A stretch of 64,000 nucleotides of DNA from an uncultured delta proteobacterium (lineage in GTDB: Bacteria; Desulfobacterota; Binatia; Binatales; Binataceae): assembly GCA_963711565.1 (NCBI GenBank), contig CAVQEQ010000004.1, positions 1,216,001 to 1,280,000 of the forward strand. The letters run 5' to 3'. The notes below the pieces were generated by a model, which saw only the letters and a list, made by a program, of their open reading frames with translations, had not been told where the DNA came from and ran no database searches. A program made the position numbers and the translations under genes. Shown in pieces: positions 14,660 to 25,382 of this stretch (positions are counted from its first letter, which is position 1; every line of letters starts with the position of its first letter).

Positions 14660-15625
14660 CTACACCTGTAGCCCTTGCAGAACCACTTTTGCCAGCGCTG
14701 CGGCACGCTCGGGAGTGGTCATGATCGTGTCGGTCGCAACCGCGCGCATCCCAAGTCGCTCGATCGGTTCGACGTAGCTGCTGTCGGCGTTGTCGAGAAC
14801 GAACAGCCCGACGATGTCGCGATACAGTCGCGCGACTCCGAGCGGCGAGACTTCCATCCCCAGGCCGCGCAGCATTTTGTCGGCGGGACCTTTGATCGTC
14901 TTGCCGCCGACAATCGGGCTGATGGCCGCGACGCGCGATTTCACTTTTCGCAAAGCCTCGCGCACGCCCTTCAATTGCAAAATCGGCCCGAGCGAGACGA
15001 ACGGATTCGACGGCGCGAGGATGACCGCGTCGGATTTGCGAATCGCGTCGAGCACCGCCGGAGTAGGGCGCGCATCGGCGATTCCGCGCAGCTCGATCTG
15101 CTCGACGCCGCCGCGCGCGCGTCCGCGCACGAAATATTCCTGGAACGGTATTGCTTGACGCCCGCGCAGTTTCACGAAAGTTCGCACTCGATCGTCGCTC
15201 ATCGGCAGGATCTTCGACTTGACTGCAAAGGCGTCCGCGATTTCCGCGGTGATTCGAGTGAGCGATGCGCCCTGACGCATCCGCTCGGTGCGATATAGAT
15301 GAGTGGCGAGGTCGCGATCGCCGAGTCCGAACCACGGCTTGCCGTAGAAGCGCTCGAGGGCCGGCAGCACGTTGAACGACTCGCCTTCGAGGCCCCAGCC
15401 CTGTGCGCGATTCACCGCGCCCGCGAGCGTGTAGGTGACGGTGTCGATATCGGGCGAGACGTGCAGCCCGTAAAATTCTTCGTCGTCGCCGGTGTTGACG
15501 ACGACCGTCAGCCGCGCGGGATCGATTCGCCGGACGAGTCCCCGGATGAACTTAGCCGCACCCACTCCCCCCGCTAGCGTGGTTATCTGCCGACGTGGGA
15601 GGGATCGCGATTGGCCGCGCGCCAT
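14660..15625 (-). CDS. cofD: 2-phospho-L-lactate transferase
   Basis: LAGGVGAAKF, VNTGDD, SPDIDTV, LGDRDLATH, FQEY, PSNPFVS, KGPADKM. Confidence 0.95.
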   Translation of the reverse strand: MARGQSRSLPRRQITTLAGGVGAAKFIRGLVRRIDPARLTVVVNTGDDEEFYGLHVSPDIDTVTYTLAGAVNRAQGWGLEGESFNVLPALERFYGKPWFGLGDRDLATHLYRTERMRQGASLTRITAEIADAFAVKSKILPMSDDRVRTFVKLRGRQAIPFQEYFVRGRARGGVEQIELRGIADARPTPAVLDAIRKSDAVILAPSNPFVSLGPILQLKGVREALRKVKSRVAAISPIVGGKTIKGPADKMLRGLGMEVSPLGVARLYRDIVGLFVLDNADSSYVEPIERLGMRAVATDTIMTTPERAAALAKVVLQGLQV

Positions 15626-16802
15626 TGGGTGCCTTTTTTCCGTAGAGCTTTTTGTAGAGCGTGCTGCGTTCGACCGCGACGCGGCCCATCTCGCGCGCCT
15701 TGTCCTCGAACACGTCGACCGGGATGAACTCGCCCGAGTCGCCGGCCTGCGCCGTGATGCTTTCCTCCATCAAGGTGCCCGACAGATCGTTGCATCCGGC
15801 CTTGAGCGTGAGCGCCGCGAGATCGATGCCGCACTTCACCCACGACGTTTGTATATTGTCGATCTGCCCGCGCAGGAACAGGCGCGAGACGGCGTACATC
15901 TGGAAATCAAGCTGCCCGCGATCGACCGGCGACACGAGTCCCTTGCGATAGAGCATCGTGTTCTGATGGATAAAGCGCAGCGGCACGAACTCGGTGAAGC
16001 CATGCGTCTGTTTCTGGATCGTGCGCAGCAGATCGAGATGATTCACTACATGCTGCGGACTCTCGACGTGGCCGTACATCACAGTTGAGGTCGTCGGTAC
16101 GCCGACCGCGTGCGCCGTAGTGATTATCTCGACCCACGCGGCGACGTTGACTTTCTTGTGACTCAGGATCTCGCGCACGCCGTCGTCGAGGATTTCCGCC
16201 GCCGTCCCCGGAATCGATCCGAGCCCGTGCTCCTTGAGCATCGTGATGTATTCCGGATAGTCCATCCGCACGCGCTTGGCGCCGTACATTATTTCCATCG
16301 GCGAGAACGCGTGGATGTGAATCTCGGGGAACGCGCGCTTCATCGCGTCGAGCAGGTCGCGATACTTGAACGGCGGCATGTCGGGGTTGATGCCGCCCTG
16401 CATGCAAATCTCCGTCGCTCCGCGCGCGACCGCGTCGGCAACTTTGCGCACGATCGTTTCGTCGGAATGGTCGTAAGCGTCGGCCTCCCAGCGCTGCCGC
16501 TTGAAGCCGCAGAACTGGCATCCCACGAAACAGATATTGGTGAAGTTGATATTGCGATTGACGACGTAGGTGACTTCGTCGCCGATATCCTCGGCGCGCG
16601 CGAGGTCCGCGCATTTCACCGTCGCGCGCAGGTCGTCGCCCTCCGACGTGTAGAGCAGCAGGCCTTCCTCGGGCGTCAGCTCTTTTTTCAGGAGAGCGTG
16701 TTCGAGCGCGGTGCGCACCGCGGGCGATGACCGGCCGAGCAAAGCCTCGACGGGGGTCGCCTCGATTTCATCGACGTAAGTGCGCCAGTACTCCAGGTTC
16801 AT
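15552..16802 (-). CDS. cofH: FO synthase subunit CofH (radical SAM)
   Basis: NRNINFTNIC...CQFC, HAFSPME, PGTAAEIL, FTEFVPL, NIQTSWVK, GTLMEE. Confidence 0.93.
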   Translation of the reverse strand: MNLEYWRTYVDEIEATPVEALLGRSSPAVRTALEHALLKKELTPEEGLLLYTSEGDDLRATVKCADLARAEDIGDEVTYVVNRNINFTNICFVGCQFCGFKRQRWEADAYDHSDETIVRKVADAVARGATEICMQGGINPDMPPFKYRDLLDAMKRAFPEIHIHAFSPMEIMYGAKRVRMDYPEYITMLKEHGLGSIPGTAAEILDDGVREILSHKKVNVAAWVEIITTAHAVGVPTTSTVMYGHVESPQHVVNHLDLLRTIQKQTHGFTEFVPLRFIHQNTMLYRKGLVSPVDRGQLDFQMYAVSRLFLRGQIDNIQTSWVKCGIDLAALTLKAGCNDLSGTLMEESITAQAGDSGEFIPVDVFEDKAREMGRVAVERSTLYKKLYGKKAPNGARPIAIPPTSADNHASGGSGCG

Positions 16803-18001
16803 GATTGGCCTCCGACAGGTCGATCCCATATCGCGCGCACTTTAGTCGCGACCGCCGGGTCGAGCCATTCATCATTGATGTATTCGTTGTAAATTGCGAG
16901 CCTTTCACCGAGCGTGAAACCGGCGCGCGCGCATTGCTCGCCGAGCCGATCGAGATGCGGCCACGGCGCTTCGGGATTCACGTAGTCCTTGCTGAGCGGC
17001 GAAATCCCGCCCCAGTCGTTGATTCCCGCATTCAGGAACAACTCGATCTGGCGCGGCGACAAGTTCGGCGGCGCCTGCACGTTCATCGACGGCCCGAGCA
17101 CGAGGCGCGCAGTCGCGATCGCGCGCGCCATGTCGTAGGCGTCGGGCTCCGGCGCGTCGGCCATCGCGATCTCAGGCTTGGCGCGAAAATTCTGGATAAT
17201 CACTTCCTGGATATGACCGTGACGCTCGTGCGTGTCGCGAATCGCCGTCAGGCTCAGCGCGCGTTCGGCCGGAGTCTCGCCGATACCGAGCAGGATTCCA
17301 GTCGTGAACGGAATCCGCAGCGCGCCGGCGTCATCTATCATCTTGATCCGCAGCGCGGGGTCTTTGTCGGGCGCCGCCTGATGCACTCCGCCGCGCGCAC
17401 GCAATCGCGGCGAGATATTTTCGAGCATCAGGCCCATGCTCGCGTTGAGCGGACGCAGCGCGCGCATTTCATCCGAGGTCATCAGCCCGGCATTAGTATG
17501 CGGCAGCAGTCCCTCGGCGAGCGCGATCTCGCACGCACGGCCGACGTATTCAATCGTCGTGCGGACGCCGAGCGTCGCTAGCGTGTCGCGATATGTTTTG
17601 AATGCGACCTCCGGCTTGTCGCCCAGGCACATCAGCGCCTCTTTGCATCCGAGCTCGGCGCCGCGCCGCGACCACAGCGCAATCTCGTCCGGCATCATCG
17701 TCCACGCACCGGGGTCGCCGGGATCCTTGCGAAACGTGCAGTAGGTGCACCGGTCGCGGCAGAGATTGGTGACGGGCAGGAAAACCTTGCGCGAGTATGT
17801 GACATCGCGCCCCTTGCCGCGATCGCGCAGCTCAGCCGCCGCCGAGAGCATCGCGTCGATGTCGCCGTCGGGACATTCGATCAGCGCGACCGCGTCCGCA
17901 TCGCTCAAACGCGCACCTGCCAGGGCTCGATCGAGGATATCGCGAATCGGCGCGCGGTCGCGCTGCTCCGAAGCGAGCGATGAATTTAGCGACGGCATCA
18001 A
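16799..18001 (-). CDS. cofG: FO synthase subunit CofG (radical SAM)
   Basis: YSRKVFLPVTNLCRDRCTYC, LPHTNAG, SMGLMLE, APDKDP, QAPPNL, DWGGISP, NPEAPWP. Confidence 0.95.
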   Translation of the reverse strand: MMPSLNSSLASEQRDRAPIRDILDRALAGARLSDADAVALIECPDGDIDAMLSAAAELRDRGKGRDVTYSRKVFLPVTNLCRDRCTYCTFRKDPGDPGAWTMMPDEIALWSRRGAELGCKEALMCLGDKPEVAFKTYRDTLATLGVRTTIEYVGRACEIALAEGLLPHTNAGLMTSDEMRALRPLNASMGLMLENISPRLRARGGVHQAAPDKDPALRIKMIDDAGALRIPFTTGILLGIGETPAERALSLTAIRDTHERHGHIQEVIIQNFRAKPEIAMADAPEPDAYDMARAIATARLVLGPSMNVQAPPNLSPRQIELFLNAGINDWGGISPLSKDYVNPEAPWPHLDRLGEQCARAGFTLGERLAIYNEYINDEWLDPAVATKVRAIWDRPVGGQS

Positions 18002-21708: not shown

Positions 21709-23095
21709 ATGGCGATCGACGTAACGATGCCGCAGATGGGCGAGAGTGTCGTTGAAGGCACGATCGCGAAGTGGCTGGTCAAGGAAGGCGACGTCGTCGT
21801 CGAAGATCAGCCGCTCGTTGAAATCTCAACCGACAAGGTCGATACCGAGATTCCGTCGCCGGGCGCCGGGCGTATCGCGAAGATTGTCGCGGCGGAAGGA
21901 CAGACGTTGCCGGTCGGCGCGACGCTCGCGGTGATCGAGCCGGCGCGCCGAGGCCCCTGCGAAGCTAAAGGTCGTCGCGCCGAAAGCAGGGCCGAAGCCG
22001 GAGCCTGCGCCAGTGCAGGTAAAGCCGGTCGCACCGCCGCTGCAGCCCGCGCCGTCGCCTCAGCTTCTACAAGCGGCGGGGGCCGGACTCCGTGAAGCTG
22101 AACCCGACGCGGGCGGTCCGCGACGATTTTCTCCCGTCGTGCTGAAGATCGCCGCGGAAGAGGGCATCGATCTGAGTCGCGTCCCCGGAACGGGAATCGG
22201 CGGACGCGTCAGCAAGCGCGACCTGCAACGCTATCTCGATACGCTGCGCAAGGGCGGAGCGCCTGCCGCAGCGCCGCCTGCCACAAACGGAGTCGCGCAG
22301 AGCAGTTCACGTCCTGCGACGACTGCTGCCGCGACCGCGCCAGCGCCGGCGCAATCGGGTCTGGGTTTCAAGCCGCCCCTCTATCAGCCCGTCGCGGGCG
22401 ACATCGTCGAGCCGTTCACGCGCCGGCGCAAGCTCATCGCCGAGCACATGGTGTACTCGAAGACGCATTCGCCGCACGTCGGCACCGTCGCGGAAGTTGA
22501 CCTCACCAATGCGATGCGGCTGCGCGAGAAACATAAAGACGAGTTCGCCCGCCGCGAAGGATTCAATCTCACGTTCCTGCCGCTCGCAGCCGCCGCGACA
22601 GTTCGCGCGCTCAAGGAGTTCCCGCGGATGAACGCGTCTGTCGTCGGCGACTCCGTCGTGACGCGCCGCGAAATCAATCTCGGCATCGCGATGGATACCG
22701 ACGAGGGCCTGCTGGTCCCGGTGATCAAGGCGGCCGAGGGCATGTCGGTGGTCGGGATTGCGCGCGCGATCGAAACTCTGCGCCGCAAAGTCGCCGAGAA
22801 GAAAATCACCGCCGACGATCTCGCGGGTGGCAGCTTCACGCTCTCGAATCCCGGACGCGAGGGCAATCTCTACGGCTTCGCGATCATCAATCAGCCGCAA
22901 GTCGGCATCCTGCGGATGGGCGAGGTGAAGAAGCGGCCGGTGGTCGTCGAAGTTGACGGCGCCGACGCGCTCGCGATCCGCACCATGATGTACCTGGCGC
23001 TCTCCTACGACCATCGCGTCGTCAACGGCGTGCTGGGCAACAGCTTCCTCTACCGCACCGCCCGCATCCTCGAAGAATCCGACTTCGAGTTGTAG
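21709..23095 (+). CDS. Dihydrolipoamide acyltransferase E2 (frameshift at about 21946 in the linker)
   Basis: Lipoyl domain STDKV, E3-binding GTGIGGRV, catalytic SYDHRVVNG; two ORFs join in the Ala/Pro linker. Confidence 0.9.
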
Positions 23096-23330
23096 AAGAA
23101 AAGCGCGGTGGCCCGGAATCCATTCGCAGCCATGCACCTCTCAACTCCGTCCCGCGACTTCCGAATGGCCGTTTAGAATAGACTAAAGCGCGATATCAGC
23201 AGCGTGTATCGTTGATGCGTGTTGACCACTTGTTGTACGCTTCGGGGCGTCGGTCGCCGCCAAAGAGAACTTCTGTGGGGATTGAGGGCGCTTGAATGTT
23301 GCTGACGAGGGCGCACAAATGGAGATGGCA

Positions 23331-24533
23331 ATGAAGGGCTCCCGCCCCACGAGGAAGATATTCATAGGAAGTGCACGCGAGAGCCTCGCCGAAGCGAAAA
23401 AGGTCGCCTACTGGATAGAAGGTTGGAGCAAAACTAATAAAGCGCATCTCGTAGTTAACAGGTGGGATGCCCCCGGGACTTTTGTCCCTGGCCAATCTGT
23501 ATGGCACCAACTCTACCAAAGGACTAAGGAGTCATTTGCAGCGGTCATCATATTTGGGAGGGACGACAAGGTTTGGTCAAGGGGTAAGGACTATAAGCAA
23601 CCCCGAGACAACGCATTGATTGAATTTGGGCTCTTTGCTGGGGGCCTTCACCCCGACAGAGTGGTCTTCTGCGTAACAGGAAATCCTAAGATTCCAAGCG
23701 ATCTGGAAGGGCTCGTTCGTATCGATATGTCGAGTGAGTTCATCAACCGTGCGGAAGTCGAAATCGAAGTATGGTTGGGGAAAATTCTCGAGATTCCAGG
23801 CGTCTTTCCTGCTGATCAAAGCAAAGTAAGTACCATGGCTAGTTCGTTAGCGGTGCGCGATCAGGCGGGCAAAAAAAGAGACATCGAAGATGGGTCCGAC
23901 CGCTTGTTGGAAGCTTTGCGCGAGGAACTCCAGTCTCTGCTCAGAAGTAAGCCCTCCTCCTACCCGAGGATCGTAAAGCGATCCACGACCCTAGTGATAC
24001 AGAAAAACGGGGACGGTCTATGCACAACCGAGGAGAGCTTTTCCTCGCCACGAAGAGATATGCAGGTCAGGCTCTTCACAATGGGGAGCGATGCACCGGC
24101 GGAATTCGACTCGCTTGATTTAAAGGTGGAGTGCGGGACTCCCGGATTCGAAGCGTCGTTTAGAAAGGGAGAAGACGATCCCAAGCGGAAGACAATTTTT
24201 ATATTCTTTCGCCCGTTCGTACCGAGAGGGCAGGAAGTCATGTACAAGGTGTCTTGGAAGTGGCCAAAGATGTGGACGATACTCTGCAAGGGGAAGCCCG
24301 ACTTTTGGCGTCAGGAAGTGCGATCAGCCACCGTTGTTGCACAGATTCGGACCGAGTTTCGCCTGCACAAGTCCCTTCGACCGGTGACCATCGAAAATCG
24401 AGGGAAGGGGGGAGGAAAACTTGAATCTCCGCCCAAAATAGGAGACTATCGTAGGTATGTCTGGGTCGTTAGAGATCTTCATCAAAATCAGGATGCTGAT
24501 CTCTGGCTGGTGCCAGAACCGAGAGGAAGGTGA
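23331..24533 (+). CDS. CAP12/Pycsar-type TIR domain fused to an uncharacterised beta-rich C-terminal domain
   Basis: KIFIGS, RW...F, DD..SRG...PRDNALIEFGLF, KIPSDLEG are typical of the nucleotide-binding TIR-like family; start after GGAG SD; AT-richer DNA. Confidence 0.82.
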   Translation: MKGSRPTRKIFIGSARESLAEAKKVAYWIEGWSKTNKAHLVVNRWDAPGTFVPGQSVWHQLYQRTKESFAAVIIFGRDDKVWSRGKDYKQPRDNALIEFGLFAGGLHPDRVVFCVTGNPKIPSDLEGLVRIDMSSEFINRAEVEIEVWLGKILEIPGVFPADQSKVSTMASSLAVRDQAGKKRDIEDGSDRLLEALREELQSLLRSKPSSYPRIVKRSTTLVIQKNGDGLCTTEESFSSPRRDMQVRLFTMGSDAPAEFDSLDLKVECGTPGFEASFRKGEDDPKRKTIFIFFRPFVPRGQEVMYKVSWKWPKMWTILCKGKPDFWRQEVRSATVVAQIRTEFRLHKSLRPVTIENRGKGGGKLESPPKIGDYRRYVWVVRDLHQNQDADLWLVPEPRGR

Positions 24534-24540
24534 AGTTGTT

Positions 24541-24636
24541 ATGAGATCGATCAGACAAGAAAAGTTTTCCAACTCTCGCGGGTTCGAGACTTCTCTTCAC
24601 TTCGGAGGAAGTGGAGCTGGCGCAGGGGTAGCCTGA
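24541..24636 (+). CDS. Putative 31-aa peptide downstream of the TIR gene
   Basis: MRSIRQEKFSNSRGFETSLHFGGSGAGAGVA; strong SD (AGGAAGGTGA) 7 nt before ATG, overlapping the TIR stop. Confidence 0.45.
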   Translation: MRSIRQEKFSNSRGFETSLHFGGSGAGAGVA

Positions 24637-24722
24637 TTTATCGACCGAACAGGCCTTCGCCCGACATTTATCCGCGCTCCCTTTTGGCGCTCTCCTCGGA
24701 CTCCCGCTGTAGAACACTTACC

Positions 24723-25382
24723 TCAGCTCGAATGCGCACCCTGCTGCGAGCGCAACTGATGCAGCATGTTTGCGATCTGCCCGCTTAGGTCTCCGATTGT
24801 CCGGCTTAGAGCGGCGGCGGCGTCGGTCGTGTCGCCGGGCTTCGAGGGTTGCGTCAGGTTGGACTCAACCGTGTACAGAATGTTCTTGCCGGTCGAGTCG
24901 AGGATCGTCCACTTCGCAGATAGCGTCGCTGTCCCATTGCTGTCGGTCTCGAAGCGGTACACGTCGATCTGCACCTGCATGTCGATGTGCACGGTGTTGT
25001 ACCATGGGAAATCGATCACCGCGGCGCCCGTCTCCGCGGCGAGGTTCCGGTCCATCGCGCTGGTGAAACCGTTCTGGACAGACTCACCCCATCGATCTTC
25101 TTTCGATAGTTCGAGACGATTGGGGGCGGCGCGCGTCACCACTTCGGGGCGATCGAGATACGGCGGCAGTTTGATCGGTCCCAGGCCGAGCGTGAAAGCG
25201 CCGCTCGTGTTCGACGCGGTCCCGGTCGCGGGCGCGGCGGTGTCCGCGCTCGGCGTCAGCAGATAGAACTTCGAGATATCTTTCTGCGGAGCGAGGATCG
25301 CCTTCGCGAGGTACGAGCATCCCGCCATGGACGCCGCAAGCGCGCCCGCGAGAAAAATTCTTAAAAACCTGGTCAAGGTCAT
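24723..25382 (-). CDS. PqiC-family ABC transport auxiliary lipoprotein
   Basis: Lipobox MAGC, LPPYLDRPEVV, DRWGE. Confidence 0.85.
   Translation of the reverse strand: MTLTRFLRIFLAGALAASMAGCSYLAKAILAPQKDISKFYLLTPSADTAAPATGTASNTSGAFTLGLGPIKLPPYLDRPEVVTRAAPNRLELSKEDRWGESVQNGFTSAMDRNLAAETGAAVIDFPWYNTVHIDMQVQIDVYRFETDSNGTATLSAKWTILDSTGKNILYTVESNLTQPSKPGDTTDAAAALSRTIGDLSGQIANMLHQLRSQQGAHSS

Follow-up and report, generated by a model that had tools for sequence, protein, structure and literature searches.

An apparently mobile two-gene module in a soil bacterium: an effector protein with an unnamed beta-sandwich domain and a downstream micropeptide gene

Background

When examining a stretch of DNA from a soil bacterium (hereinafter the window, that is, the whole 64,000 nucleotides that were analysed), we were confronted with a gene for a TIR-domain protein that is followed by a very short open reading frame (ORF), and the question that this locus raises is what signal controls such an apparently orphan effector and whether the short ORF encodes it. 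Here we describe the insert that carries the two genes, trace the relatives of both, and weigh the explanations that are compatible with their distribution.

A low-GC insert at a variable site

23096..24722, no strand: low-GC insert (52.6% GC) flanked by the E2 and MCE lipoprotein genes, which converge on it

The first-pass annotation of this DNA had noted an AT-richer islet between the E2 gene and the MCE operon, and the base composition bears this out: the GC content of 52.6% in the islet compares with 61.0% genome-wide, and GC3 is 57% as against 85-86% in the two adjoining genes. The insert holds one long ORF, and a scan of the islet detected no consensus promoter and no meaningful repeat. 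Among 29 loci from the same genus, the gap between E2 and MCE is at most 250 nt long in 23 and contains unrelated inserts in the other six, and the profile of the C-terminal domain described below detected the gene in none of the 32 same-genus genomes searched (these tallies take in G018 and G023, two genomes flagged as unpublished, no locus from either of which is used here). The short gap or other inserts in the relatives, together with the absence of the gene from the same-genus genomes, point to an insert that is confined to one lineage and occupies a variable site.

Several features of the surroundings deserve mention in their own right. The empty E2-MCE site often carries a palindromic repeat element of 137-245 nt (L009, L010, L014, L019, L020, L023 and L032), and in other relatives the gap is occupied by a gene for a beta-lactamase-fold, TPR, GIY-YIG-like, membrane or secreted protein (named by eye). 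In the window, two ORFs make up the E2 gene (21709-23095), one for the lipoyl domain (21709-22095) and one for the catalytic part (22013-23095); both E2 motifs are found in a single ORF at 19 of the 29 relative loci, with some of the others clipped at the locus edge, and the split reflects a frameshift or an assembly error near 22010-22095. Upstream of the E1/E2 cluster, at 15552-18001, there are two radical-SAM genes, which we take to be similar to CofG and CofH of F420 precursor synthesis.

The effector gene and its TIR domain

23331..24533, + strand: effector-receptor gene of 400 aa (TIR, linker, beta-sandwich), from the ORF and near-identical copies in the protein collection
23355..23732, + strand: CAP12/Pycsar-type TIR domain, predicted NADase, from Pfam PF10137 and alignment to Cap12 structures
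23733..23960, + strand: linker, putatively helical or coiled-coil, from sequence inspection and weak coiled-coil Pfam matches in homologues
23961..24518, + strand: unnamed 15-strand beta-sandwich of the aminopeptidase-N-terminal/ribophorin-I fold, putative peptide receptor, from the model and relatives
24255..24308, + strand: family signature W-x-W-P-x-x-W-x8-D-x-W, in 21 of 59 aligned members

The 400-aa protein, for which alternative starts at 23319 or 23292 are possible, was originally described as having a CAP12/Pycsar-type TIR domain that keeps the catalytic Glu, and profile searches agree: amino acids 9-134 match Pfam CAP12-PCTIR_TIR (PF10137) with an E-value of 1.4e-20 and a score of 73.9 bits, compared with the curated cut-off of 24.7, and Glu98 (codon at 23622) lies within the motif RDNALIEFG. 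The domain aligns with the Cap12 and PycTIR structures (PDB 7un8, 9lmq, 8jsj), such that S14, R92, N94, E98 and D124 (codon at 23700) correspond to S10, R78, N80, E84 and D110 of SfSTING, with identical spacing for the last four, and the catalytic Glu is kept in all 15 TIR relatives identified below. In the part of the published account covered here, the SfSTING active site comprises S10, R78, N80 and the catalytic E84, plus D110 from the dimer mate, and the active site of this TIR class is completed by close packing (PMC9402430). Judging by its sequence, the TIR domain of the 400-aa protein is predicted to be an NADase.

Two further observations concern TIR proteins as such. The cluster of the present protein includes a 392-aa variant (P0008) that diverges past PPKIG and has a different tail, which suggests an insertion or a frameshift at the 3' end of the gene in one strain. 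A genome of the Acidobacteriota group encompasses four PF10137 TIR genes within ~21 kb (G1112:C3:64486-85438).

The beta-sandwich domain and its partners

The C-terminal domain had been characterised as rich in beta-strands and not recognisable as a known family, a description that stands. The C-terminal 227 aa have no match at E<=1 in Pfam, PADLOC or NCBIfam, and the alignment-based model, with a pLDDT of 94.9, consists of 15 strands (it was used in place of a single-sequence fold, which was discarded at pLDDT 33). In Foldseek and structure comparison, the best matches are ribophorin I (6s7o_E; Z 14.2, rmsd 3.8, 188 residues aligned), a DUF3857-type protein and domain I of M1 aminopeptidase; the fold held in common with ribophorin I and aminopeptidase-N is no evidence of function. 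STING, SAVED and cNMP-binding domains are not among the matches listed in the fold searches, and unlisted families may still match. The profile search against solved structures matched the TIR part alone, and the ESM Atlas returned unnamed clusters alone. The DUF3857 profile (PF12969) has no match in the 400-aa protein and matches weakly in four of its 62 relatives, in one of these barely above the cut-off.

These relatives emerged when 1.84 billion representatives were searched exhaustively, with 63 matches at E<=0.001, 62 of them besides the protein's own cluster. The domain is C-terminal or stand-alone, and its signature is found in 30 of the 59 aligned members if Phe is allowed at the third position. 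The N-terminal partners in the 62 relatives are TIR domains (15), transmembrane helices (28, by a hydropathy heuristic), caspases (6) and TPR (1), the remainder being other (3) or short or fragmentary (9); one of the three others is caspase-like, with His and Cys motifs as in the caspase fusions and without a Pfam match. A distant member has a patatin partner. The suggestion that the domain might swap effectors is thus borne out by the TIR, transmembrane, caspase and TPR partners, and one domain joined to swapped effectors is likely to be the regulatory part of the protein.

Scans for further loci had a low yield. A pattern scan of genomes, with 25 of 64 parts covered, gave three true loci in 120, a metagenome scan gave four in 13, and whole-genome searches were positive for 2 of 401, 1 of 251, 2 of 301, 2 of 151, 2 of 301 and 3 of 252 genomes, the centre genome being counted each time. 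Word-index protein searches, which are weak evidence on fusions, recovered only the protein's own cluster in one case, no protein of 561-2000 aa in another and 7 members in a third. Searches of viral contigs and of plasmid and phage collections recovered no member of the domain family. Among the distant relatives, both without a peptide ORF, the patatin fusion (L201:806-2422) comes from the host's own family, and another copy, which stands alone (L202:1073-3100), is directly followed by a metallophosphoesterase-like ORF.

The peptide ORF and its recurrence

24524..24533, + strand: strong Shine-Dalgarno (SD) sequence overlapping the TIR stop codon, anti-SD duplex -14.1 kcal/mol
24541..24636, + strand: 31-aa peptide ORF with the LHFGG motif at 24595-24609, putative antitoxin-like ligand, from positional homologues and RNA contigs

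The SD-led 31-aa ORF just past the TIR stop codon is exactly as the first-pass annotation reported it, with the SD overlapping the stop and a 7-nt spacer, and a duplex of this strength is reached by 2 of the 831 ATGs in the window. Comparable ORFs were sought with a peptide test that required an ATG between -5 and +50 nt of the stop codon, an anti-SD duplex of -7 kcal/mol or stronger and an ORF of 10-60 aa, thresholds that were set after the first eight loci had been seen. The DNA examined included ten homologue loci classed as core (154-201 bits against the domain profile; six TIR and four transmembrane) and three distant ones (54-86 bits), with no caspase fusion in the set. The test was passed at 10 of the 11 core loci, the window included, so the downstream micro-ORF that had been predicted to accompany homologues is present at nine of the ten besides the window; none of the three distant loci passed. 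By comparison, 76 of 2578 genes in the source genome and 20 of 444 from a mix of taxa pass (3-4.5%). The three loci found after the criteria had been fixed (L206-L208) all passed, with duplexes of -9.3 to -15.8 (binomial 9e-5). At L187, the duplex is exactly -7.0 and the ORF leaves the contig after 11 codons. With three sister pairs collapsed and the window left out, six of seven lineages pass, and the first eight loci are no more than 23-47% identical to one another in the domain. A chance ORF was rejected as an explanation, given that the recurrence at core loci is well above the background.

The peptide ORFs span 14-57 codons, mostly 14-31. A Gly-Gly or Gly-Ala motif is present in 9 of the 11 core loci (background, 12 of 2578 and 4 of 444), in the form of LHFGG in the window, VHFGG in L183, FTFGG in L207 and RGGR in L187 and L194; L206 and L207 have a terminal VGGG, and the C-terminus of L208 is GVG. 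The HFGG common to the window and L183 is encoded with three synonymous codon differences. Beyond the glycines, the peptides have little in common: similarity is significant in the two closest sister pairs (p 0.024 and 0.010, uncorrected), and across 45 pairs it showed no correlation with domain identity (Spearman -0.13, p 0.40). L185, an intact TIR fusion on the nearest branch to the window, has no peptide ORF within the tested stretch, which is at odds with a strictly needed antitoxin, unless a peptide gene is located elsewhere.

At yet another locus, L205, attC-like repeats bracket the TIR gene together with the first 34 codons of the peptide, with 61 of 80 aligned positions identical to another repeat in the array, and this arrangement implies that gene and peptide start would move as one cassette. 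The array (L205:7756-12771, in a Thermoanaerobaculia genome) contains same-strand genes of unnamed function, and the same genome encodes two different TIR-domain fusions of the beta-sandwich family. Taken at the level of sequence, the two-gene module of this soil bacterium appears to be real, rare and mobile, and recurs beyond the source genome.

Expression signals

24421..24449, + strand: weak candidate internal peptide promoter, 7/12 consensus matches, below the promoter-scan threshold, suggested mainly by homologues
24471..24504, + strand: stem-loop, from an inverted repeat and fold, at which three RNA contigs begin

A strict TTG-17-TAnnnT pattern, which was spotted in these sequences prior to testing, occurs 20-60 nt before the peptide start, at the effector stop codon, in five of ten loci, compared with 8 of 2579 and 1 of 405 gene ends in the background; eight of the ten loci reach 8 of 12 promoter consensus matches (background, 94 of 2579 and 51 of 405). 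In those five loci, the peptide gene apparently has its own canonical sigma-70 promoter. Six RNA runs, selected because they include part of the islet, provided strandless contigs that overlap the peptide ORF in five of the six (four of five studies) and span 24473-24756; in three of four runs, the peptide-ORF contig is the sole one within 20 kb, and the starts at the stem-loop are 24473, 24477 and 24477. These contigs are a hint of peptide expression rather than a measurement, since they might also derive from the 3' end of the MCE transcript on the other strand, and the missing cover on the TIR body is not read as silence. A hairpin follows several of the peptides, at L206 with a U-run.

Genomic neighbourhood

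The window was said to lack a CD-NTase or cyclase, and searches with PF18144 (CD-NTase) and PF00211 (class III cyclase) found no match in it. The same holds for cyclases linked to homologues: among 131 ORFs of at least 130 aa at 10 loci (seven core, three distant), there is no CD-NTase, cyclase or second TIR, and none was seen by eye over 1.5 kb at L206-L208 (L187, without flanks, lies outside the neighbour scan). No homologue locus belongs to a defence island, the neighbours being mostly housekeeping genes, so it is from the effector domains alone that a role in defence is deduced. A CD-NTase is present in three of five genomes checked, namely, the source genome and two others; in the source genome it is located on contig C2, in a separate operon with its own effector, and there are seven class III cyclase matches elsewhere. 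The genome G209 has the module and no SMODS match. The C2 operon (G000:C2:6450-10810) is type III CBASS-like and has conjugation genes and a long ORF of low GC as neighbours; judging by eye from its motifs, it presumably encodes an AAA ATPase, two HORMA-like proteins, the CD-NTase and a nuclease-like effector.

Possible function of the module

As the only conserved partner of the domain, endowed with its own expression signals, the peptide is the candidate ligand. A constantly made ligand is not a simple activator, so it would either repress, for which we see even chances, or need alteration in order to activate, which is unlikely; the peptide's own promoter and the RNA contigs favour an antitoxin over an activating ligand. 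We therefore propose, with a probability of roughly 0.5, that the peptide, produced constitutively, is an antitoxin-like ligand that holds an interchangeable cell-death effector in check and, hence, represses rather than activates. Conceivably, the separately expressed glycine-motif peptide would bind the beta-sandwich domain and keep the TIR inactive; phage shut-off, cleavage or sequestration would remove the peptide, which may be unstable or targeted by phage proteins, and free the domain; the freed protein would oligomerise, NAD+ would be destroyed, and infection, if phage is indeed the trigger, would be aborted by cell death.

A Gly-Gly-like site resembles a site of cleavage or conjugation, and the peptide could, instead, be an inert bait that is constantly present and is altered at Gly-Gly by a phage protease or modifying enzyme, the product then activating the effector. 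The Gly-Gly-like site is the one common feature of the peptides (internal in seven, terminal in three), a peptide-less locus such as L185 would do no harm, and constant expression is equally compatible with such a role; however, the motif is found at widely differing positions and amid widely differing residues, the scanned loci have no linked processing enzyme, and the scheme names no trigger, so we regard it as unlikely. Patchy, solitary loci amid housekeeping genes, one copy within an attC-like array and the lack of copies in the plasmid and phage collections searched would also be expected of an addiction or stress toxin-antitoxin in which the peptide restrains a toxin that maintains itself or the cassette array and has no anti-phage role. 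The effectors, however, are the set used by anti-phage signalling systems, and a dedicated, swappable receptor domain would seem to exceed the needs of addiction, which leaves this option distinctly improbable.

About as improbable is direct sensing of a phage protein or metabolite by the domain, with an RNA or a dispensable modulator as the downstream unit. It would accommodate the absence of the peptide from L185 and three distant members, as well as an abundant short RNA, often with a terminal hairpin, but SD, ATG and glycine motif persist at 23-47% domain identity and through synonymous codon changes, and the RNA of the window folds no better than shuffled sequences (z -0.81). Finally, the CD-NTases and the class III cyclase matches enumerated above, along with a TIR type and effector swapping that are reminiscent of CBASS, might be taken to mean that the domain senses a cyclic nucleotide supplied in trans by an unlinked enzyme. 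We find this very hard to accept: the source CD-NTase is on another contig with its own nuclease-like effector (read by eye), G209 has the module without a SMODS match, the best fold matches are to aminopeptidase-N and ribophorin I, and the peptide would be left unexplained.

Returning to the restraining peptide, we suggest more tentatively that the module represents a new class of bacterial immune signalling, with a ribosomally made micropeptide in place of a nucleotide second messenger. A dedicated beta-sandwich receptor, portable between TIR, caspase and membrane effectors, would sense whether a decoy peptide is present or has been processed and would thereby protect against shut-off by phage or against phage proteases. 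If true, a peptide-reading receptor would be a new type of input for bacterial immunity and would account for TIR, caspase and membrane effectors that, as a class, look like orphans. Partner genes of mostly 14-31 codons fall under the usual gene-calling limits and so would be overlooked by operon-based defence mining. A peptide-gated effector is also potentially useful as a switch.

Relationship to known systems

The effector-swapping immune receptors STING, SAVED, cNMP-binding and 2TM-beta have nucleotide ligands. The present protein resembles Cap12 of CBASS and PycTIR in the TIR family, in the active-site residues and in the placement of the effector N-terminal to the regulatory domain, and, by analogy, activation by oligomerisation may be expected. 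Unlike these proteins, it has an aminopeptidase-N-type beta-sandwich in the model and a micropeptide gene in place of a linked cyclase; the Cap12 models score 50.1 and 46.7 bits, compared with a cut-off of 450, and cover aa 9-132 only. The linked CD-NTase or cyclase that would define CBASS or Pycsar is absent from the window and the loci scanned, as are the second TIR or separate effector gene of Thoeris beside the homologues scanned. The TIR, transmembrane, caspase and patatin parts joined to the beta-sandwich domain are the types that CBASS, Pycsar and Thoeris use as effectors. With domain I of M1 aminopeptidase, the luminal domain of ribophorin I and DUF3857, the domain aligns at Z 10-14 and rmsd 3.3-4.2 over 150-188 residues; it differs from these in that identity is 4-13% and in being a stand-alone terminal domain without a peptidase module.

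The module is described nowhere in the literature searched, a scope that most subscription papers and supplements fall outside, nor in the parts covered here of PMC13069673, 10.1101/2025.09.30.679545, 10.64898/2025.12.03.692087 and PMC7159879; members may appear in the candidate tables that supplement the two bioRxiv preprints. The closest parallels in logic come from two systems, each in the part of its account covered here. In PanDA, which is Panoptes-like, a constitutive cyclic dinucleotide keeps a toxic effector repressed, and the effector becomes active when phage causes the ligand to be lost (PMC13640721). Repression by a constant ligand would be the logic of both systems, and both include transmembrane effectors, but the ligand of PanDA is an enzyme-made cyclic dinucleotide that is read by a 2TM-beta receptor (PMC13640721), whereas the module has a peptide made by the ribosome as its candidate ligand. 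In the anti-phage Rpn system, a small antitoxin is transcribed from an internal promoter, has a ribosome site to itself and is more highly expressed than the toxin (PMC10327210). The long and short Rpn proteins thus provide the precedent of a small downstream partner with its own expression signals, although RpnS is the in-frame C-terminal domain of the toxin (PMC10327210), whereas here the partner is a separate ORF of 14-57 codons and the effector is interchangeable. An adjacent small gene, as in type II toxin-antitoxin systems, is found at 10 of the 11 core loci, with L185 intact in the absence of the peptide, and, by analogy, the module may work like a type II toxin-antitoxin or a guard system. 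The two-gene module is, then, real and undescribed, and it would be categorically new if the peptide is a signal that is read by a portable receptor.
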